Assembly: GCA_964619725.1 (NCBI GenBank)
Contig: CAZUFC010000087.1
Location: forward strand, 1-38,267
Direction: 5' to 3'
Source of the DNA: an uncultured bacterium
GTDB lineage: Bacteria > CSSED10-310 > CAZUFC01
DNA: 38,267 bases
The position numbers and the translations under genes were made by a program. Positions 7,133-32,733 of the stretch are shown here, piece after piece. Numbering within the stretch: the first letter of the stretch is position 1; the number at the start of each line of letters is the position of its first letter. A model generated the notes under the pieces. That model was not told the origin of the DNA and ran no database searches. It worked only from the letters and a program-made list of their open reading frames with translations.

Positions 7133-7555
7133 TTAATCCATAAGTTCTTTCCACATGGCCCTTTCGATTACGCTGATCAGTTCGTTTATCCTTTGCCTGG
7201 ATTCTATAATCGTATCAAGTATGGCCCTTAACGGCTCCATGCGGGATTCGGATAATGAACCCAAAGCCACCTTCTCCATGTTCCAATTCGGGAATATTCT
7301 TTGATTAGCGTTGTCTTCCGCATTTAACAGCAGCACGTCCGTATGACGTTCGTCATTCACGATTTTCCTGTAAAGTTCATCGATTTTCTCGTGAGGCCCT
7401 TCGATTACTTGAAAAAACAACCTGCCGCTGGTCATCAATACGCCCGTTATGTCGTTCTTTTCGTTATCCCTGGCGGATTGCTTTACAAGGTCGTTTATCT
7501 CTTCCAAAGTCAATTCCCGATTGTAACGGCTGATGTATTTTAATCGTTTCAACAT
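7133..7555 (-). CDS. Stand-alone BLUF blue-light photoreceptor (140 aa)
   Basis: Y7, N31, ITGVL, FFQVIEG (Q49), DERH, W91-x-M93. Start at ATG 7555 preceded by GGAGGA. Confidence 0.93.
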   Translation of the reverse strand: MLKRLKYISRYNRELTLEEINDLVKQSARDNEKNDITGVLMTSGRLFFQVIEGPHEKIDELYRKIVNDERHTDVLLLNAEDNANQRIFPNWNMEKVALGSLSESRMEPLRAILDTIIESRQRINELISVIERAMWKELMD

Positions 7556-7722
7556 TTTCCATTCCTCCTTTAAAATTGAACCACTCACTCCTTCCTACCA
7601 AATATCCGTTCAATGGTCAATATCTGTCGAAAATAGGAGATTGGAAAACTATAAGCGGTTTTTTGAAAGACGGCTTCTGCCGATGCCGGAATAATTGGCC
7701 ATTGTGTGCCGAAGAATTATCC

Positions 7723-7761
7723 TTCACATTTGTTGACAAACTTTAGACAAAATTTTATCCT
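7723..7761 (+). promoter_or_regulatory. Sigma-70 promoter overlapped by CarH/LitR-type TnnACA direct-repeat operator
   Basis: TTGACA (7733-7738), 17 bp, TATCCT (7756-7761). TnnACA units at 7723 (TTCACA), 7733 (TTGACA) and 7744 (TAGACA), spaced 10-11 bp. Confidence 0.75.
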
Positions 7762-7821
7762 GTTAAAAGCTCCGAAAAGCGGCATGAGCAAATACGGAAA
7801 ACTGCGACAAGGAAAAAAATA

Positions 7822-8751
7822 ATGACGAACAAATTCTCAATTAAAATTGCATCGCTCAGATCGGGTTTGACGACTCACGTCATCAGAGTCTGGGAAAAGA
7901 GATACGGAGCGGTTAAACCTGAAAGAACCTCCACGAACCGACGCATATATTCGGAAGAAGAAATCGAACGGCTGAGGTTGTTGAACAAAGCGGTGAAAGC
8001 GGGATACAGCATCGGACGAATTGCCGAACTGGATACCAAAGAAGTAATCAAATTATTGATGAAAGACGATACGGAACTGCGCAATCGCGAAATTACCCCT
8101 GAAGATGCTGGAAAGGAGGAGGCGGCTGATGGATTCTTCAAGGAGGCTTTCGATCACGTGGAAAGCCTTAATTCAGAAGGACTAAAGGCGACCCTCACGC
8201 AAGCTGAAATGCAATTGGCGCGACCGGTCTTGATCGATCAGGTCGTTGTTCCCATATTGCAAAAAATAGGCGAAAGCTGGCGTGAAGGAGAAATTAAAAT
8301 ACTCCATGAACATAAAGCTATTGAAACTATAAGAAATGCCCTGCAATCCATGACCGTTTCACAGTCCTCTTTTTCGGATTCCGCAAAAACAATCGTATTC
8401 GCCGTTCCTGCCAAGCATTTCCATGACCTGGGAGCTTTGATCGCTGCAGTTTCCGCTATCTCAGAAGGCTGGAAAGCCGAATTCCTGGGACCTAATCTTC
8501 CGGCTGAAGAAATCGCCGCTGCTGCCCTCATGTTGAAAGCCAGAATTGCTGCCGTCAGCATAGTCTATCCGGAAAACGATGCCGAAACTATGGCTGAATT
8601 GAAAAAACTAAGGCAATATCTGCCCGAAGATATTGAAATGATCGTCGGCGGAAGAGCCGCCGCCTCCTATTCCAAAATCCTCGATGATCTAGGCATCAAA
8701 ATAATTCCGGACATGCCGGCCTTTCGATTATACCTCTCCTCATTGTCATGA
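7822..8751 (+). CDS. carH: MerR-family adenosylcobalamin-dependent photoreceptor repressor (CarH/LitR-like)
   Basis: MerR HTH with RVWEKRY, W-x9-EH motif (WREGEIKILHEH), B12-binding Rossmann domain with HFHDLG, LGPNLP and IVGG. Confidence 0.85.
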   Translation: MTNKFSIKIASLRSGLTTHVIRVWEKRYGAVKPERTSTNRRIYSEEEIERLRLLNKAVKAGYSIGRIAELDTKEVIKLLMKDDTELRNREITPEDAGKEEAADGFFKEAFDHVESLNSEGLKATLTQAEMQLARPVLIDQVVVPILQKIGESWREGEIKILHEHKAIETIRNALQSMTVSQSSFSDSAKTIVFAVPAKHFHDLGALIAAVSAISEGWKAEFLGPNLPAEEIAAAALMLKARIAAVSIVYPENDAETMAELKKLRQYLPEDIEMIVGGRAAASYSKILDDLGIKIIPDMPAFRLYLSSLS

Positions 8752-8756
8752 TTGAG

Positions 8757-8898
8757 TCATTTTGATAGTGTCTCATTTTGATAGTCAACTCCGGTCAGGT
8801 GTGACCAGGCATGCTGATTTAAAATGAGTTTTTGAACAAGCGCTGTTTCATTCAATAAAATCGGGTGAACGCGTGAAGAAAAAGCTATCAAAATGAGA
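8757..8898. promoter_or_regulatory. Repeated activator-binding (enhancer-like) sites, unit 1
   Basis: TCATTTTGATAG at 8757-8768 and 8773-8784; inverted copy CTATCAAAATGAGA at 8885-8898. Confidence 0.7.
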
Positions 8899-8984
8899 GA
8901 AAATATTATGGCTGAAAGGGAATGAATTTCGTCAAATATTCTTGAACCATTCCAGAACAATGGTTTGTACAGAAACAGAATAAC

Positions 8985-9000
8985 AGGTATGATAATTGCT
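8985..9000 (+). promoter_or_regulatory. Sigma-54 (-24/-12) promoter 1
   Basis: AGGTATGATAATTGCT, with GG 8986-8987, N10, GC 8998-8999; about 90 bp downstream of the proximal site. Confidence 0.65.
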
Positions 9001-9010
9001 ACTGAGAGAG

Positions 9011-9346
9011 GACGGCCTCTAAAGCCGCAAGGCGAATGAATTGGGGAATTCGGGGGTTATCAAAATTCCGGGAAACAGGGAGGCAGGCAAAGAGGCAGAA
9101 ACGAGAGGCGCAGAGAGTGAAAACGGAAATCGAAAGCAAAAGGTTAAAGCGAACGTGGGACAGTATGCTGAAAGCGAAAAGCGGAGCTGACGAGAGGTTG
9201 ACGGATTGATTAATAGATGGACTGATCATGATTAGATCGAATGGAGACGTTTCATAAACAGGCAGGAACCGCAAAGCTCTGCCTCCCGATTCGCCGGAAT
9301 TGCAATTCATTAATGAGAGCCATTCCATAATCTCGAAAAGAGATTA
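9011..9346 (+). ncRNA. Candidate structured non-coding RNA 1 (long closing stem, purine-rich interior)
   Basis: Nested pairings 9035-9043/9303-9311, 9064-9071/9294-9301 and 9078-9087/9278-9287; GCC-GCAA-GGC hairpin 9024-9033; 3' hairpin 9328-9346; begins just after a sigma-54 motif. Confidence 0.5.
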
Positions 9347-9395
9347 AAGGGTCGATGCTGGACTGGCGCTGCGGTTAAAGAATTTTTTTCTATTC

Positions 9396-9450
9396 AGTGG
9401 CTGTCCAGCATTAAATTTTGAATCGAGATTCGAGTTTATGGACAGACACT
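9396..9450 (+). repeat. 55-bp MITE/REP-like element A
   Basis: AGTGGCTGTCCA...TGGACAGACACT terminal inverted repeats; close copies at 30474-30528 (reverse) and 31978-32032. Confidence 0.85.
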
Positions 9451-9478
9451 ATCTAAAATGGAGACCTCCAACCCGCCG

Positions 9479-9604
9479 CTATCATTTTGATAGAATTCTT
9501 CAGAGTCAATCAAAATCATATAAAATGTGTTTAAATCAAAGCGTAATAATAATAAACTTAAAAAGCAGCCCAATTTAGCCGAAATAAAGCTATCAAGATG
9601 ATAG
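9479..9604. promoter_or_regulatory. Repeated activator-binding (enhancer-like) sites, unit 2
   Basis: Palindromes CTATCATTTTGATAG 9479-9493 and CTATCAAGATGATAG 9590-9604. Confidence 0.72.
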
Positions 9605-9681
9605 ATTTGTTGAAGCGCTTCAAATGAAGAAATAGTGAAGAAATAAACGCCGGCGGTAATCTGAGAGGACGGTGGGAAATA

Positions 9682-9697
9682 TGGTATGGAAATTGCT
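9682..9697 (+). promoter_or_regulatory. Sigma-54 (-24/-12) promoter 2
   Basis: TGGTATGGAAATTGCT, with GG 9683-9684, N10, GC 9695-9696. Confidence 0.72.
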
Positions 9698-9707
9698 TCT
9701 CATAAAG

Positions 9708-10054
9708 CGTGATATGTTGGACGAAGGGGTCTTAAGTCGGATTCCAGGAACGGGAAAAAGTTAAGAAGGTTTTATTGAAGTCAAGATCATCATAAAGTAA
9801 AAAGGTCAGGGAATGAAGAGTCATAATAATATAGAAGTTTCATGTGCAGCCGGCGCGGTCCAGTCTCACAACACCGGCAATATAATTCCAAGACCGATCT
9901 TCGTCCAAGCCTTTCAAAAAGAAGCCATTCAATAAAAGCCTTCACGCGCGCCGCGCCGGTTGAGCACATATATGAAAGCCTGTGGAGCAGCACAGCATTA
10001 ATTGGGATTATTTTTGTGCCAGGCGCTCCATATTCGCAAGGCCTATCCTTTTTT
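9708..10054 (+). ncRNA. Candidate structured non-coding RNA 2 with three crossing long-range helices
   Basis: Pairings 9717-9733/9890-9908, 9765-9779/9928-9943 and 9838-9858/9951-9977; 3' hairpin 9981-10032; T6 at 10049-10054. Confidence 0.55.
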
Positions 10055-10091
10055 GCCTTAAGAAAAATTCGCCGTTTATGGACAGTCACTA
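10055..10091 (+). repeat. Partial copy of the repeat family (element B internal end joined to an element A-type terminus)
   Basis: GCCTTAAGAAAAATTCGCCGTTTATGGACAGTCACTA matches parts of 30474-30676 and 31830-32032. Its terminal CTA is the TAG stop of the regulator gene. Confidence 0.7.
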
Positions 10092-11456
10092 ATTAAGTTT
10101 GTAGCGTTTAATTTTTCTGTAGAGAGTAGCCTCACCTATACTGAGAATTTTCGCCGCTTTGCGTCGATTACCTTGAGCTCTTTTCAGAGCATCGATGATG
10201 GCTCTTTTTTCGTAAGCTTCAATTGAGCCTTCTTTAAGCATGATCATACCGTCGTTTTGTTTATTGGGATCGATTTGAGAGAAGCGGATTCTTTCTGGGA
10301 GGTCTTCGGGATTAATGATTTCGCCGGAGCTGAGCACGATGGCGCTTTCGACGGAATTTTCAAGTTCTCTGACGTTCCCGGGCCAGTAGTAATCATGGAA
10401 TATTTGGAAGGCCTGATCGGAGAATTTTTTTTGAACGTTGTTCTGTCTGCAGAACATATTAAGGAAGTAGTCGATGAGGGGAACGATGTCTTCTTTTCTG
10501 TCTCTGAGCGGAGGGAGTTTAATTTGAACGACGTTAAGGCGATAGAAGAGGTCTTCCCTGAATTCGTTGGTTTTCATTTTTTCTTCCAGGTCGCATTTAG
10601 CGGCGGATATTAAGCGAGATTTAACGGGGAAGACGTCGACGCTGCCGACGGGGCGGACTTCTTTTTCCTGAAGGACTCTGAGCAGCGAAGCCTGAGCGCT
10701 GAAGGGCAGATGATCGACTTCATCCAGGAAGACGGTGCCGTCGCCTGCTGAGCGGAAGAGCCCCTTGGTGGAATGAACGGCGCCGGTAAAAGCGCCTTTG
10801 GTATGGCCGAAGAGTTCAGATTCGATAAGATTAGGATTAACTGCGCCGCAGTCGATAGGGAGGAAGGGCTGTTTTTTTCTGTTGCTGAGATTATGAATGG
10901 CTTTTGCGACGAGTTCTTTACCTGTGCCTGATTCGCCCTGGATAAGAATGGAATTGGATTTCGGGGCCACTTTCATAATCATATTGAAAATGCGGTTCAT
11001 GGAAGGGGATGAGCCGATAATATTATCGAAATGGACGGCTGCCTCTGTTTCTCGATTGAGATGGAGGTTATGTCTTTCAGTAGCTTTGTATCGACAAGCT
11101 CTTAAGACTCTCTCCAGGATAATTTCCGGGTGCACGGGTTTTTCAAGATAGTCGAAGATGCCTTTTTTCATCAATCTGACGGCTGAGTCGATGCTTCCGT
11201 ATCCTGTCAGGATCAGGACAGCGGTTTGGGGGGTTTCTTCCAGGATTTTATTGACGAGTTCTTCGCCCGTCATTTCGTCCATGCGTAGATCTACGATGAC
11301 GGCATGAAAATAGTAAGAGCTGATTTTTTCCAGGGCTTCATAACCGTTGACTGCCGTTTGAACGACAAAGGGTTCGTCATCGAAAATTCTGGTTAAAAGA
11401 CGTCGTATGCTGGAATCGTCGTCAACCACAAGGATATTATATTTTTCTTTTTTCAT
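10089..11456 (-). CDS. Sigma-54-dependent response regulator (NtrC/AtoC family: REC-AAA+-Fis HTH)
   Basis: VVDDD...VDLRM...LTG...KP receiver, [36 protein letters not shown]-terminal TLYRKI. Confidence 0.95.
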
Positions 11457-11536: not shown

Positions 11537-11740
11537 TTATAAACAGTTGACCTCTTCAATTTTCGACAAACATGACCAGTTGCAATCCCAGTTGTCGATA
11601 TCATGAAATCGGGGATTATCGCAGGAAACGCTTTTTATTTTTTTCTGACCGTTTTGAATCATCCATTCGACGATCAAAACGGCATCCCGGTCGCATTCAG
11701 AACAATGAAAACGTTTGATTTCGCATCGTTTCATGTTCAT
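11537..11740 (-). CDS. Small Cys-rich protein (67 aa), possible metal-binding
   Basis: GGAGG Shine-Dalgarno upstream; CSEC...SCDNP...CNWSC; co-oriented upstream of the regulator. Confidence 0.65.
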   Translation of the reverse strand: MNMKRCEIKRFHCSECDRDAVLIVEWMIQNGQKKIKSVSCDNPRFHDIDNWDCNWSCLSKIEEVNCL

Positions 11741-12044: not shown

Positions 12045-13400
12045 ATGAATCGAGACAGGATAAAAATTTTAAACAAGGGAAAAGAGCAATCCGGAAGATA
12101 TGTATTATATTGGATGCAGCAGGCTCAAAGAGCATCCTTCAATCATGCGCTTGAGTATGGGATAGAGCGGGCGAATGAACTGGATAAACCGCTGATCGTT
12201 TTATTTTGTATAACGGAAAATTATCCGTCTGCGAACTCAAGGCATTACCGTTTTATGTTGGAGGGATTAGACGATGCAGCAAAAAAGCTGTCAGAACGCG
12301 GTATAAGATTGGTATTCAAAAAAGGAGAGCCGGCGGAAGCTGCAGCGGATTTAAGCGAAGAGGCTTGCCTGGCGGTAACGGATTGCGGATATACTCGAAC
12401 ACAGAGGAAATGGCGCGACAGCGCCTCATCATTGATGAGATGTCCTTTTATCATGGTTGAGAGCGACGTAATCGTTCCGGTGGAGCGGGCGAGCGAGAAG
12501 GAAGAATTCGCCGCTCACACCATTCGAAAGAAGATAAACCGTTTACGGAAGGAATATTTGACGCGGGTGGAAGAAATCCCGGTCAGGCGTGATTCTTTAA
12601 ACTTGCTCATTGATAGAGAAGGCGTTTTCGCAGAAGTTCCTTCGCTCGGGGAGCTGAAGGAAATAGACAGGAGGGTCTCGGAAAGCAGATTTTACAAGGG
12701 CGGCGCTTATCAGGCGGAAAAATTACTGGAAGAATTCATCGGGGATAAATTGCGGCATTATGCGGAACAAAGGAATGATCCGAACCGGGACAATTTGTCG
12801 AAAATGAGCCCTTATTTGCATTTCGGTCAGATTTCTTCGGCATATATTGCGTTGAAAGTTTTAGAGCATGGTGGGGAAGGAGTGGAAGAATACCTGGAGG
12901 AGCTGATAATCCGTCGCGAATTAAGCATGAATTTCGTTCATTATAATCCTCATTACGATACTTTTGAAGGATTGCCGGATTGGGTGAAGAAGACATTGAT
13001 CCGGCATGCGGGAGATGAGCGGGAGTATGAGTATGATTATGAAGCCTGGGAAGCTGCTGAAACGCATGATCCTTACTGGAATGCGGCGCAGAAAGAGATG
13101 ATGATAACGGGGAAGATGCACGGCTATATGAGGATGTATTGGGGGAAGAAAATTCTGGAATGGACATCCGGTCCTGAGGAGGCATATCGGATTCTGATAA
13201 GATTAAACGACAAATATGAGTTGGACGGCCGCGATCCGAACGGATATGCGGGAGCAGCGTGGTGTTTCGGAAAGCATGACCGGGCGTGGAAAGAGAGACC
13301 GGTATACGGAAAAATCCGTTATATGAACGACAGGGGTCTCAAGCGCAAATTCGATGCCGATGCTTACGTGCGCCGGATGAATGAATTGGAAAAGACGTGA
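12045..13400 (+). CDS. phrB: Class II CPD photolyase
   Basis: VLYWM..AQR...NHAL, LSKMSPYLHFGQIS, IIRRELS.NF, MHGYMRMYWGKKILEW, DGRDPNGY. Confidence 0.95.
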   Translation: MNRDRIKILNKGKEQSGRYVLYWMQQAQRASFNHALEYGIERANELDKPLIVLFCITENYPSANSRHYRFMLEGLDDAAKKLSERGIRLVFKKGEPAEAAADLSEEACLAVTDCGYTRTQRKWRDSASSLMRCPFIMVESDVIVPVERASEKEEFAAHTIRKKINRLRKEYLTRVEEIPVRRDSLNLLIDREGVFAEVPSLGELKEIDRRVSESRFYKGGAYQAEKLLEEFIGDKLRHYAEQRNDPNRDNLSKMSPYLHFGQISSAYIALKVLEHGGEGVEEYLEELIIRRELSMNFVHYNPHYDTFEGLPDWVKKTLIRHAGDEREYEYDYEAWEAAETHDPYWNAAQKEMMITGKMHGYMRMYWGKKILEWTSGPEEAYRILIRLNDKYELDGRDPNGYAGAAWCFGKHDRAWKERPVYGKIRYMNDRGLKRKFDADAYVRRMNELEKT

Positions 13401-21315: not shown

Positions 21316-23379
21316 CTAGTTACCCACGCCTACCGTATCCGATTCTTCTTTCTTTTCCCCGGCTTGTTCATCGCTTTTTAAAAAATCAGGCATAACCTGT
21401 GCCGCAGCGGCTTTTATCTCCCGTATGTTTTCCTCATCTTCAAGGCCTTTATTGAAAATTTCAAATATTAATTCTCGCTTCGATTCCACAATAAAATCGG
21501 ATACTTTTTCCAGGAAATCGTCGTGCCGTTCGCTGCCGATCTTCTGCAGTTCCTGAGTCAGGATAACGTTGAACTGAGTTTTTATAGCGTTCATTTCCTG
21601 TTGCAGGAACCAGCTATGGAAGTCCGCAATAAAAGCGTCGAAATCTTCGGTTAATTTTTCGTCCAGTTCTCTTCCCTCAAAAACTTCCAGCATAACTTGC
21701 GCCTGTTGGGACCCGTGGTCTGTCATCTGGTAATCCACGAATTGCGACCGGTAATATGCGTGCATATTATCCGGCAGTTTATTTTGAAGCTCTTTAAGTT
21801 TTTTGAACAGTTCGTCCGAAGATTTTTCGAGGAGATCGAGCTGGAATTGAGCGGTAAAGGCCGAAAGGGCTTCATCAAGGGAATTTTGAACGACGTCGGA
21901 TAATGTTTTTTCTCCAAGTATTATGTCGCCTATTTTTTTACCGGAATACTTTTCGTCGACTGATTCGGGCACAAAGTTTTCCATAAACTGGTACATTTCT
22001 GATTCATACTGTCGAATGATCGATATGGGGATGAAGTCGAGGTACCCCATTACGGCGGCGTAAATAGCGATGATCTGTTTTTGAACGGGCAAAGGTTTGT
22101 ATTGATCCTGTTTGAGTACTTCAGTCATACGGTAGCCCTGGGCAAGCTGTTTTTGAGTGGCGCGGTCCAGGTCGCTGCCGAATTGCGCAAAAGCTTCCAT
22201 TTCACGAAATTGAGCCAGGTCGACCCTGAGTCTTCCGGCTATTTTGCTCATGGCTGAAATTTGGGCGGCGCCGCCGACTCTGGATACGGAAAGTCCGACA
22301 TTAATGGCGGGTTTGACGCCCGAATGGAAGAGATCGGTTTCCAGGTAAATCTGGCCGTCGGTAATGGAAATGACGTTGGTGGGGATGTAGGCCGAAACGT
22401 CGCCCGCCTGAGTTTCAATAATAGGTAAGGCCGTAAGAGAACCGCCCCCTAATTCGTCGTTTAATTTTGAGGCGCGTTCAAGCAACCGGGAGTGAGTATA
22501 AAAAATATCGCCCGGGAAGGCTTCCCGTCCCGGCGGTCTTTTCAGAAGCAGTGACAATTGCCTGTAGGCGGCCGCCTGTTTGGTCAGATCGTCGTAAATG
22601 ACCAGGACATGACGTCCGCGGTCCATGAAATATTCTCCCATGGCGCAGCCGGAGTACGGCGCCAGGTACTGCAACGGCGCAGGGTCACCAGCGGATGCCG
22701 CCACCACGATGGTGTATTCCATCGCCTCATGCTCCTCCAATATTTTCACGGTGCGGGCGATTGTGGAAGCTTTCTGTCCGATGGCCACATAAATGCATAT
22801 GACGTCCTCGCTTTTCTGATTCAGGATCGTGTCCACGGCTATAGCGGTTTTGCCTGTCTGGCGGTCTCCGATAATCAATTCGCGCTGTCCGCGGCCGATA
22901 GGTATCATGGAATCGATAGCCTTGATTCCCGTTTGCAGAGGTTCTTTTACCGGCTGGCGGTCCGTAACGCCGGGCGCCAGTCTCTCAATCGGCATATAAT
23001 TCTCCGATTCGATCTCGCCCTTGCCGTCCAACGGTCGGCCTAAAGGGTCCACGATTCTTCCTATCAGTCCTTCGCCGGTCGGTATCTCGATAATGCGTTT
23101 CGTTCGCCAGGCGCTGTCGCCCTCCTTGATGCTCAGATAATCACCCATTATCGCCACGCCCACGTTGTCCTCTTCAAGATTGAGCGCCAGGCCGTAAATA
23201 TCCTTTTCAAATCGAATCAGTTCGCCTGCCATGCATTTTTCAAGTCCGAAGATACGGGCAATACCGTCGCCAGATTCCACAACTTTGCCTACTTCGCTGA
23301 CTTCTATGCCCTCTTTTCCTTGATAATCCTCAATTTTTTTCCTGATGTATTCCGTTATATCGCCTGAACCTAACGCCAT
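21316..23379 (-). CDS. atpA: F1 ATP synthase alpha subunit with 175-aa C-terminal extension
   Basis: [25 protein letters not shown]; the canonical sequence ends near residue 512 of 687. Confidence 0.98.
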
Positions 23380-30118: not shown

Positions 30119-30473
30119 TTACGGCATTCCTTTTTTGTGCGCAGCTTTTTCCGGCGCATTCCCCAAAAACGGAATCCGTCCGGAATCCAGCTCATTTCCT
30201 GAAAAATATTGACCGTTATCAATCATTTGACCGCCGGCGTCTGGAGTAAAACAATCATCGCAAATCAATGTGAGACGAAAAAACCTCAATCGATTTCATG
30301 GTTAACCTTTAACATTTTTGCTTCAGAAGTCAAGCCGATTCTTGCCTGAAATCCGACGCGCTGAGCATAGGGGCCGAAAGAGATCGTTCCTCTTTGCTGC
30401 GTTAAGGTCGTTACCCGCGTTAGTATGGACCCGGCATGCCGAATAAAAATGAGTTTTTGGACAGGCGCTAACG

Positions 30474-30676
30474 AGTGTCTGTCCACAAACTCGAATCTCG
30501 ATTCAAAATTTAATGTTGGACAGCCACTTGGGTTTTTGATCCATAAACGGGTGAATTTTTCTTAAGGCCAGGAAGGCAAAGATTTGCGAGGCAGGGGTAT
30601 TGCTTATACGTTGACTGAGCAAATCCGAAGCCTGACGCTGCAAAGGGGCAAATACGCCGTTTATGGACAAAAACTA
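30474..30676 (-). mobile_element. 203-bp composite MITE-like repeat (element A + element B), left copy
   Basis: Ungapped reverse complement of 31830-32032 (25 mismatches by hand count, about 88%). Element B has ends GTTTTTG(A)TCCATAAACG / CGTTTATGGACAAAAAC. Confidence 0.8.
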
Positions 30677-30998: not shown

Positions 30999-31397
30999 AT
31001 GGCGAAAACTGCAACAGACTTGAAAGAGGCCGGCTGGCCGGAAGAAGAAATGCGGAAATACGATCCGTGGAAACATTTAAAACGGCACAAAAGGGATCCG
31101 GCCATGCGTCTTCGTCGCGAGCGCGCATTGAAAGTCGCCCGAAGAGCGGCCAGAATTTTGAAAATGGAGTTTGAAGCAGACCGCGTCGTGATTTTCGGTT
31201 CTCTGGCCCATAACGCCTGGTTTACGCCTCGCTCCGACATTGACATCTATGTCGAGGGAATTCCAGCCGGCCTTTTTTTCAAGGCGGAAGCTGCTATTGA
31301 AAATATTGATCCTGAATTCAGGATCGATCTTATCCATGAAGAGGAATGTACCGGCGTTATGTTGAAAAAAATTGACGAAGAGGGTTTAGAATTGTGA
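30999..31397 (+). CDS. Minimal nucleotidyltransferase (MNT) antitoxin
   Basis: FGS-x10-DID motif, third Asp in IDL; GAGGA RBS. Confidence 0.9.
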   Translation: MAKTATDLKEAGWPEEEMRKYDPWKHLKRHKRDPAMRLRRERALKVARRAARILKMEFEADRVVIFGSLAHNAWFTPRSDIDIYVEGIPAGLFFKAEAAIENIDPEFRIDLIHEEECTGVMLKKIDEEGLEL

Positions 31398-31828
31398 ATG
31401 AATGGCGGTCCGGAGAAGCCGAACGCATTTCAAATGAATTGCGCCTGGTGAATGAAATTGTAACTCAAGTTCAATCGGACTGGGAAAAATTCGTCCGCAC
31501 AGGTGATGATGCTTATCTTAAAGCCACGGCCTATGATCTTCATGGGTTCTATACAGGATTAGAAAAGATATTCAAAACAGTTGCCGGTTCGATAGATAAT
31601 GAAATCCCAACCGGAGAAACCTGGCACAAAGACTTAATTGAACAAATGACCAAAGAATTCCCGGAAATACGTCCCGGTTTGATTTCTGTCAGCAGCAGAG
31701 AACTATTGGATGAATATCTTCGTTTCAGGCACAGAATACGAAACATATATTCGTTCAACATTGTCCCGACTCTGGTCAGGGACCTTATTCAAAAACTTCC
31801 TTCCATATTCAGTCAAATAAAAACATAA
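31394..31828 (+). CDS. HEPN (HepT-like) toxin
   Basis: LHGFYTGLEKIF, WHKDL, FRHRIRNIY; GTGA overlap with the MNT gene. Confidence 0.87.
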   Translation: MNEWRSGEAERISNELRLVNEIVTQVQSDWEKFVRTGDDAYLKATAYDLHGFYTGLEKIFKTVAGSIDNEIPTGETWHKDLIEQMTKEFPEIRPGLISVSSRELLDEYLRFRHRIRNIYSFNIVPTLVRDLIQKLPSIFSQIKT

Positions 31829-31829
31829 A

Positions 31830-32032
31830 TAGTTTTTGTCCATAAACGTCGAATTTTCCCCAATACTGAGTCAGTCTTCGGATTTGCTCAGTCAAAGTAT
31901 AAGCAATACCCCTGCCTCGCAAATCCTTACCATCCTTGTTTTAAGAAAAATTCGCTCGTTTATGGATCAAAAACCGCAGTGACTGTCCAGCATTAAATTT
32001 TGAATCGAGAATCGAGTTAGTGGACAGTCACT
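31830..32032 (+). mobile_element. 203-bp composite MITE-like repeat, right copy
   Basis: Element B about 31830-31975, then element A 31978-32032; inverted relative to 30474-30676. Confidence 0.8.
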
Positions 32033-32733
32033 AAATAGGAAATTTCGTTTCATTCCTCGAAGAAAATGCCGATCAGCATTGACTCATAGAAGGCGTAAGA
32101 ACCCTTTGCGAGCAACTGCAATATCCCTGTCTTTTGACGCTGCTGAAGCGCTTTCGAAGTTTAAACCTTTCCAATCCTTTCAGGGTTCTCATATTGATTG
32201 CATCGGTACTTAGCAAAACGGCGCGACACTTTTTCATCAAATATTTGACTGATTGAAATCCCCATAAGGAACGTACTCTGACCCACAAATATCTGTTTGA
32301 CGGACTGTCGAACCTATTGAAAAAAGTGTATTCCCGCTTTGACCAGGACCTGAATTCCAATCTCTTTGCGTTTATCGGCGCCGGAGACGTTTTCTTCGTC
32401 CGCTTTCCACTCTTGTTCGCGTCAATTCGTGAAGTTTCGCGGATGAAAAAAAAGAACTGCGGTATCCATTAACATTCGTTCATTCTTTTCGATAGCGATA
32501 CTGACTCCGATCCCGATTAGCGTCTCTCCACGAAGACATTTTTAACTCTGCATGCCCGGATGGACATGCGATGCGAGTTTATGGACAAAAAACGGTTAAC
32601 TGATGCGTCAGACAAGAGGTTTCATCCGCCGGCACGGCGAATTGTAAAGTTATATGGGCGGGTATTGCGTCAGGCGTATCCGAAGGTCAGATTAATAAAG
32701 GGTAAAGATATGCATATATGGATGCAAGCCGCT

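Follow-up and report, generated by a model that had tools for sequence, protein, structure and literature searches.

The DNA analyzed here, referred to as the window, is a stretch of 38,267 nucleotides that makes up contig CAZUFC010000087.1 (contig C87) of assembly GCA_964619725.1, from an uncultured bacterium of the GTDB lineage Bacteria; CSSED10-310; CAZUFC01. The assembly comprises 9.17 Mb (9,173,508 bases) on 344 contigs, with 90.9% completeness and 6.5% contamination, and DNA of the window is contained in microbial-mat metagenome runs, no RNA run being listed for it. Our subject is a 1.3-kb gap (8752-10088) between two convergent genes. One encodes a CarH-like MerR/B12-binding regulator (7822-8751, + strand), identified in a Pfam scan of the window open reading frames (ORFs), and the other a response-regulator sigma-54 activator, or enhancer-binding protein (EBP), of 455 aa (10089-11456, - strand), identified by Pfam and its translation. 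On the + strand of the gap, the same layout is present twice: a distal site is followed by a proximal site and then by a -24/-12 promoter. An initial annotation of this DNA had described such a repeated layout, and the motifs and spacings were all found where it had put them. It had also placed the gap downstream of the NtrC-family gene. The gap does adjoin the EBP gene, but the flanking genes are convergent, with both units pointing towards that gene.

The distal enhancer of unit 1 (8757-8785) consists of two direct copies of TCATTTTGATAGT (8757-8769 and 8773-8785) 16 bp apart, TCATTTTGATAGT being the reverse complement of the proximal half-site of the same unit. Read as a 15-mer, positions 8770-8784 show two mismatches to CTATCA-N3-TGATAG. 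The proximal enhancer of unit 1, CTATCAAAATGAGAG (8885-8899), is a palindrome with one mismatch, and its center lies 94 bp before the GG of promoter P1 (AGGTATGATAATTGCT, 8985-9000, + strand), a sigma-54-type -24/-12 promoter with GG at 8986-8987 and GC at 8998-8999. From the usual promoter-start spacing, with transcription beginning about 12 nt past the GC, the P1 start is predicted near 9011. Unit 2 has perfect palindromes at both its distal (CTATCATTTTGATAG, 9479-9493) and its proximal enhancer (CTATCAAGATGATAG, 9590-9604), as well as a weaker site at 9506-9520 that is related by sequence similarity. From the center of its proximal palindrome it is 86 bp to the GG of P2 (TGGTATGGAAATTGCT, 9682-9697, + strand), a promoter of the same type with GG at 9683-9684 and GC at 9695-9696 and a predicted start near 9708. 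Distal sites had been described as being of the CTATCA-N3-TGA(T/G)A type in both units, which is true of the unit 2 palindrome, whereas the unit 1 site consists of two tandem half-site repeats rather than a single palindrome.

Both proximal sites open with AAAGCTATCAA. The distal-to-proximal spacing is 115 bp in unit 1 and 111 bp in unit 2, and in both units the palindromes are centered 111-119 and 222-234 bp upstream of the predicted starts, in agreement with the distance of roughly 80-150 bp or more from the promoter that is usual for activator sites. P1 and P2 have their GG and GC exactly 10 bases apart, in a TGGCAC-N5-TTGCW-like context.

The perfect palindrome CTATCA-N3-TGATAG occurs at only two places in 9,173,508 bases, both of them in the gap and 111 bp apart. 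With up to one mismatch it occurs at 16 genomic places versus four in a reversed control. When up to two mismatches were allowed within the window, five matches were found against a shuffle mean of 1.17, a count reached in none of 100 shuffles, and four of the five fall within the gap. The number of promoter-pattern matches in the window with two mismatches allowed (n = 2) was not significant, as two were reached in 19 of 100 shuffles; P1 and P2 are exact matches to the pattern. Genome-wide, GGYAYRNNAATTGCT, to which both P1 and P2 fit, has 28 matches versus two in the reversed control, and GGTATGNNAATTGCT has six versus one. This enrichment indicates that P1 and P2 conform to the genome's own form of sigma-54 promoter. 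There are 277 palindrome-like sites (two mismatches or fewer) in the genome, and a sigma-54-like site lies within 350 bp at only the four located here and at one weak site (C10:74268). The genome-wide scan that had been proposed as a check thus found the palindrome to be rare, and coupled to sigma-54-like sites essentially at this locus alone. The enhancer/promoter architecture is genuine, occurs in duplicate, and has essentially no counterpart elsewhere in the genome.

The EBP gene next to the gap is intact. Its product matches Response_reg (9.9e-26), Sigma54_activat (3.1e-65) and HTH_8 (3e-12) in Pfam, and the translation contains the receiver residues DD12-13 and D56, an AAA+ domain with Walker motifs, GESGTGKE and GAFTGA, and HTH_8 at the C-terminus. 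Among NCBIfam models no equivalog cut-off was reached, the best match being AtoC with 412 bits against a cut-off of 714. The genome has a single match to rpoN (210 bits against PF04552). Given its adjacency and published precedent, the neighboring EBP is most likely the protein that acts on the sites. The recognition helix is nearly invariant across eight EBPs (46-100% identity), so the helix-turn-helix domain cannot assign the palindrome to a particular EBP. The regulator had been called an orphan. The term is correct only insofar as the window ORFs scanned against Pfam yielded no histidine kinase domain.

Located 80 nt upstream of the EBP gene is a gene for a 67-aa protein with four cysteines (11537-11740, - strand), here called the 4-Cys protein, which is preceded by a strong GGGAGGA ribosome-binding site and is probably co-transcribed with the EBP gene. 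There are 38 homologues at E <= 0.001 in 1.84 billion representatives, in which the four cysteines are invariant. The protein matches no Pfam family, is found only in unnamed clusters of the protein atlas, and its profile has no match in any of the 13 genomes of the same-phylum comparison set, which are those of the other species in the searched collection, none of them closer than phylum level. The 4-Cys protein may be part of the input.

What the two promoters would transcribe was assessed by comparison with the rest of the genome. A slightly wider promoter pattern has 50 genomic matches. Behind 44 of them an ORF of 60 aa or more begins within 400 nt, and for 40 of the 44 such an ORF start is preceded by a GGAG, GAGG or AGGA core within 16 nt. 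P1 and P2 belong to the 10 of 50 matches that are not followed by a core-preceded ORF of this length. A hexamer coding model trained on 1,737 long ORFs of other contigs gave the EBP, CarH and BLUF genes scores of 0.34 each, and seven gap ORFs (57, 49, 40 and 84 aa on the + strand; 109, 99 and 67 aa on the - strand) scores of -0.27 to 0.11, such as antisense ORFs have. Relative to true coding segments, six of the seven rank no higher than the 1.2nd percentile and the remaining one is at the 7th. Candidate starts in the transcribed regions are preceded by ribosome-binding cores of at best four nucleotides, AAGG or GAGG. Together with the homologue searches, these results bear out the view that no convincing protein gene follows either promoter. 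With about 300 bases behind each predicted promoter that hold no convincing gene, a non-coding RNA output is probable and the best reading.

The alternative that P1 and P2 drive mRNAs for small proteins, namely a basic 57-aa ORF (9036-9209) and a 40-aa ORF (9813-9935), is unlikely, although it is the most probable of the rival readings. Both ORFs start with ATG, 25 and 105 nt past the predicted starts, and each has an AAGG core upstream, at a spacing of 7 nt for the 40-aa ORF but merely 3 nt for the 57-aa ORF. Furthermore, the + strand of the first transcribed region is 66% purine, as is often seen in coding strands, and all tests used give weak statistics for short ORFs. Against this, the hexamer scores of the two ORFs (-0.085 and -0.081) do not reach the 1st percentile for true coding segments and resemble those of antisense ORFs, and the genes behind the genome's other sigma-54 promoters mostly have strong GGAGG-type sites. 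Neither ORF has a homologue in a set of 5.8 billion proteins, in a word-based search that is insensitive for short, biased sequences, nor a match at E < 0.2 in the 13 same-phylum genomes, nor a paralogue in its own genome. Coding output from either unit is unsupported, and the tests have limited power for very small or atypical proteins.

Two other consensus sigma-54 promoters of the genome also lack a convincing gene. At G000:C74:40092 (- strand) there is no downstream ORF of at least 60 aa, and at G000:C51:26877 (+ strand) there is only a 92-aa ORF with a TTG start that is not preceded by a ribosome-binding core. A stem followed by a T-run is found approximately 220 nt downstream of the former and approximately 330 nt downstream of the latter, and as judged from these elements both promoters may drive further sigma-54-dependent small RNAs.

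The unique part of the putative RNA1 (approximately 9011-9310, + strand) has a 5' hairpin and a closing helix around a purine-rich interior. Its fold has a z score of -2.35, an equally stable fold being obtained for one of 200 shuffles, and the 23-nt closing helix (9064-9086/9279-9301) is present in both the minimum free energy and the centroid structures. It is followed by a long hairpin of 119 nt (9324-9442, + strand; -47.1 kcal/mol, z -4.68), which has no clear or canonical U-tract and, from its predicted fold, is a candidate 3' end or stabilizer of RNA1. The putative RNA2 region (approximately 9708-10032, + strand) is unique in the genome and is directed at the EBP gene, whose 3' end it faces. 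The possibility that RNA1 or RNA2 pairs with the 4-Cys, EBP, CarH, BLUF and photolyase mRNA leaders was unsupported, since duplexfold with 60 shuffles per pair gave z scores of -2.1 to +1.3 and implausibly long duplexes.

No + strand intrinsic terminator was predicted between 9708 and 10088, and the 3' region of RNA2 (9960-10100) is unstructured (z 0.53); RNA2 may therefore continue as antisense RNA into the EBP gene, within which terminator-like + strand sites first occur at 10642, 10779, 11041 and 11225 (span 10642-11244). This leads to a second alternative, in which P2, together with any read-through from P1, acts chiefly in cis as an antisense promoter and damps the convergent EBP gene by pairing or polymerase collision, as a negative feedback. 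P2 indeed faces the 3' end of the EBP gene at a distance of 380 nt. A missing predicted terminator is, however, weak evidence, as Rho-dependent or repeat-associated termination is outside the prediction, and unit 1, which is ended by the -47 kcal/mol hairpin, would be left unexplained. We consider a mainly antisense role rather improbable.

Both units are bounded by copies of a dispersed palindromic 60-nt repeat, of which 331 type-A and 253 type-B BLAST matches are found genome-wide, usually arranged as B, approximately 11 nt, and A. Unit 1 ends in a type-A copy (9396-9456, forward; BLAST), and the hairpin after RNA1 is formed by this copy together with a degenerate inverted copy (approximately 9310-9371). 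A hairpin (z -3.97) is also predicted for the type-A copy in isolation. Unit 2 ends in a type-B copy (10033-10096; BLAST), which overlaps the EBP stop codon (10089-10091). The presence of a repeat element bounding each unit fits a transcript end there.

Further copies of the repeat are found by BLAST at 30474-30568 and 31941-32033 of the window. The spacer that separates the two enhancer sites of unit 1 includes a 42-nt stretch (8803-8845) of which approximately 10 weak copies exist at other genomic places. One of these (30428-30469) is adjacent to a member of the dispersed repeat family, so a portion of this spacer may be repeat-derived as well.

A third alternative is that the units are relics, in which former protein genes were decayed or displaced by repeat insertion and the promoters are now idle. 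The repeat copy that ends each unit and the degenerate inverted copy would agree with this, as would the lack of structural signal in RNA2, and there are no relatives that could show conservation. However, no ORF fragment with a homologue was found, and both perfect 12-base palindromes as well as both near-consensus promoters have been kept at matching spacing while the rest diverged beyond recognition. BLAST between the units revealed no similarity besides the sites and promoter, and their global alignment gave a z score of -0.61 over the regulatory parts and one of 1.0 over the transcribed parts. As the units are alike only in sites and promoter at matching spacing, selection on the motifs is suggested and not a recent duplication; neutral decay is unlikely because it would not have spared the motifs only. 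We regard idle relics as quite improbable. A recent tandem duplication as the origin of the units was rejected, given that there is no alignment signal outside the motifs.

The idea that the RNAs are CsrA-type sponges acting via GGA motifs was rejected as very improbable: the genome has one csrA gene, and there are 11 GGA motifs in RNA1 and seven in RNA2, but composition-matched shuffles have means of 10.0 and 6.1, so there is no excess over composition (RNA1: P 0.42 for GGA and 0.25 for A.GGA), csrA directly adjoins fliW (G000:C7:53364-53893, - strand), an arrangement in which FliW and not an RNA antagonizes CsrA in a flagellar partner switch, and no Hfq match was found at the Pfam family cut-off in this 91% complete assembly.

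The best explanation of the locus, which we hold with about even confidence, is a pair of sigma-54-dependent, EBP-activated non-coding transcripts. From the sequence we infer their transcription, their start and end points, the acting EBP, the non-coding function and any target. The gap would contain two independent + strand transcription units dependent on sigma-54. An EBP, most likely the response regulator encoded next door, would bind the CTATCA-N3-TGATAG sites as dimers, oligomerize once D56 is phosphorylated by a kinase encoded elsewhere, and open the sigma-54 closed complexes at P1 and P2. The output would be two non-coding RNAs without relation to each other, each approximately 300 nt long or longer. 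RNA1 would be purine-rich, closed by a long helix, and ended by the stable repeat-derived hairpin, while RNA2 would lack a recognizable terminator and may extend antisense into the 3' end of the activator gene. The initial annotation had proposed that the adjacent regulator activates two RNAs of approximately 300 nt. The architecture, the rpoN gene, the intact EBP and the missing coding ORF speak for this proposal, whereas RNA2 has neither a fold signal nor a terminator and the link to the EBP is one of adjacency.

Several observations weigh against two EBP-activated non-coding RNAs. Among 41 genomes searched (40 others), the gap DNA matches its own genome alone. The best EBP relatives in the 13 same-phylum genomes are 42% identical, and no closer ortholog is available there for a conservation test; EBP matches in genome and metagenome loci are 37-40% identical. 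Over all three contig and genome searches the identities were 31-42%, which is the level of paralogues, and relatives with 48-52% identity exist at the protein level (the four closest being P0041-P0044). The genome has 37 EBP-like places, and the sites are tied to the neighboring EBP only by adjacency. Small unconventional proteins remain compatible with the coding tests used. The z score of RNA1 is modest, with -1.52 for the opposite strand, RNA2 shows no fold signal (z 0.06) besides lacking a + strand terminator, and the two regions have no shared sequence and are thus not a duplicated RNA family. At gathering thresholds, no Rfam family matched anywhere in the window, and a search of the gap relaxed to E <= 10 gave only two chance-level matches on the opposite strand (E 0.33 and 9.1). 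The suggested Rfam check therefore placed neither window nor gap in any curated RNA family, CrcZ, Qrr and GlmY/GlmZ included.

The assembly calls for similar caution. A total of 203 repeat matches are located within 300 nt of contig ends, so the repeat family probably fragments the assembly. Short low-depth contigs from four DNA runs are identical to the window and contain no informative gap variants, and a 172-nt contig from a second study matches 9731-9891 with one difference. Among the short contigs from the four DNA runs, no independent contig bridges the repeat copies. Since the path leads through high-copy 60-nt repeats, the order of unit 1, unit 2 and the EBP gene depends on the original assembly.

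Activation of small-RNA genes by NtrC-type regulators is well known from Vibrio, where the LuxO sites on the Qrr genes are palindromic with a 3-bp spacer and the Qrr RNAs are approximately 100 nt long, mutually homologous, Hfq-dependent and terminator-ended. The locus described here would share with LuxO-Qrr an NtrC-type regulator acting with sigma-54 on more than one RNA gene through palindromic sites with a 3-bp spacer, and lacks those features of the Qrr RNAs (the length of approximately 100 nt, homology, Hfq and terminators). LuxO is described as an NtrC-type response regulator which together with sigma-54 activates several Qrr small-RNA genes (10.1101/2021.07.01.450815, PMC11407668).

A closer similarity is seen with CbrB-CrcZ/CrcY, in which an NtrC-family regulator and RpoN control RNAs of several hundred nucleotides next to the regulator gene, with two RNAs per activator; crcZ is reported downstream of cbrB in all Pseudomonas genomes analyzed in that source and requires CbrB and RpoN (PMC5113210). 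According to the same source, crcZ and cbrB have the same orientation and CrcZ can arise by processing of a common cbrB-crcZ transcript, whereas the units found here are convergent with the EBP gene. CrcZ and CrcY are moreover described there as alike and as acting on Hfq/Crc, (PMC5113210), whereas the two regions here are unlike each other and the genome yielded no Hfq match at the family cut-off.

The nearest precedent comes from Desulfovibrio vulgaris, whose sigma-54 regulome as published by Kazakov et al. in 2015 includes four non-coding RNAs (PMC4641369). For the response-regulator EBPs DVU0653 and DVU0679 of D. vulgaris Hildenborough, the target is given there as 'ncRNA downstream of' their own gene. 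Like these two, as they are presented in that paper, the locus combines a GAFTGA-containing response-regulator EBP with activator sites upstream of sigma-54 promoters, a putative non-coding target beside the regulator gene, and a regulon that seemingly consists of that target alone. The initial description of an undescribed module was consequently too strong, as response-regulator EBPs whose listed target is an ncRNA behind the regulator gene have been published for D. vulgaris (PMC4641369). Unlike in the Desulfovibrio cases as listed there, two tandem units with unrelated transcribed sequences converge here on the EBP gene and are known from sequence alone, and the organism comes from another phylum, of which few genomes have been sampled. 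As far as the predicted features go, the tandem units with unrelated transcripts, the convergent orientation, the repeat-derived 3' hairpin and the absence of a curated RNA family are what is particular to this locus among the known systems.

Three light-related genes are found around the locus (7133-8751 and 12045-13400): a BLUF protein gene (7133-7588, - strand; Pfam scan of window ORFs), the CarH-like regulator gene, and a class II-type photolyase gene identified by profile match (12045-13400, + strand). Upstream of carH, tandem repeats TTGACAAA / TAGACAAAA adjoin a sigma-70-like -35 element and may represent a candidate operator. It is tempting to combine these elements into a light-linked sigma-54 circuit, in which the operon of the 4-Cys protein and the orphan regulator, placed between the BLUF, CarH and photolyase genes, would drive two unrelated long RNAs, RNA2 would act as antisense RNA to the activator gene in a negative feedback, and the repeat hairpin would have been co-opted as terminator or stabilizer of RNA1. 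We consider this full scenario speculative and improbable.

The remaining genes of the window are chromosomal housekeeping genes (ATP synthase, ParAB, MutS and FolD), and no tRNA or tmRNA genes were found in the window. The ORF for the alpha-type subunit of ATP synthase (21316-23379, - strand) encodes 687 aa; its Pfam domains stop at residue 485, which leaves a C-terminal extension of approximately 200 residues unexplained. At 30999-31828 (+ strand), genes for a Polbeta nucleotidyltransferase and a HepT-like protein are adjacent and their ORFs share 4 nt. Judged by its sequence, this pair looks like an MNT/HEPN-type toxin-antitoxin system.

As this kind of module has already been published, the gain is incremental. 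If transcribed, the two units would represent two new sigma-54-dependent regulatory RNAs in a compact regulon with one activator and two targets. Such a regulon makes the activator, the binding site and the output directly testable in a lineage with 13 other species genomes, and the convergent layout offers a simple setting for testing antisense feedback on an EBP gene. The locus would also add to the view, put forward for sigma-54 regulomes (PMC4641369), that response-regulator EBPs serving only a neighboring non-coding RNA are common among free-living bacteria.

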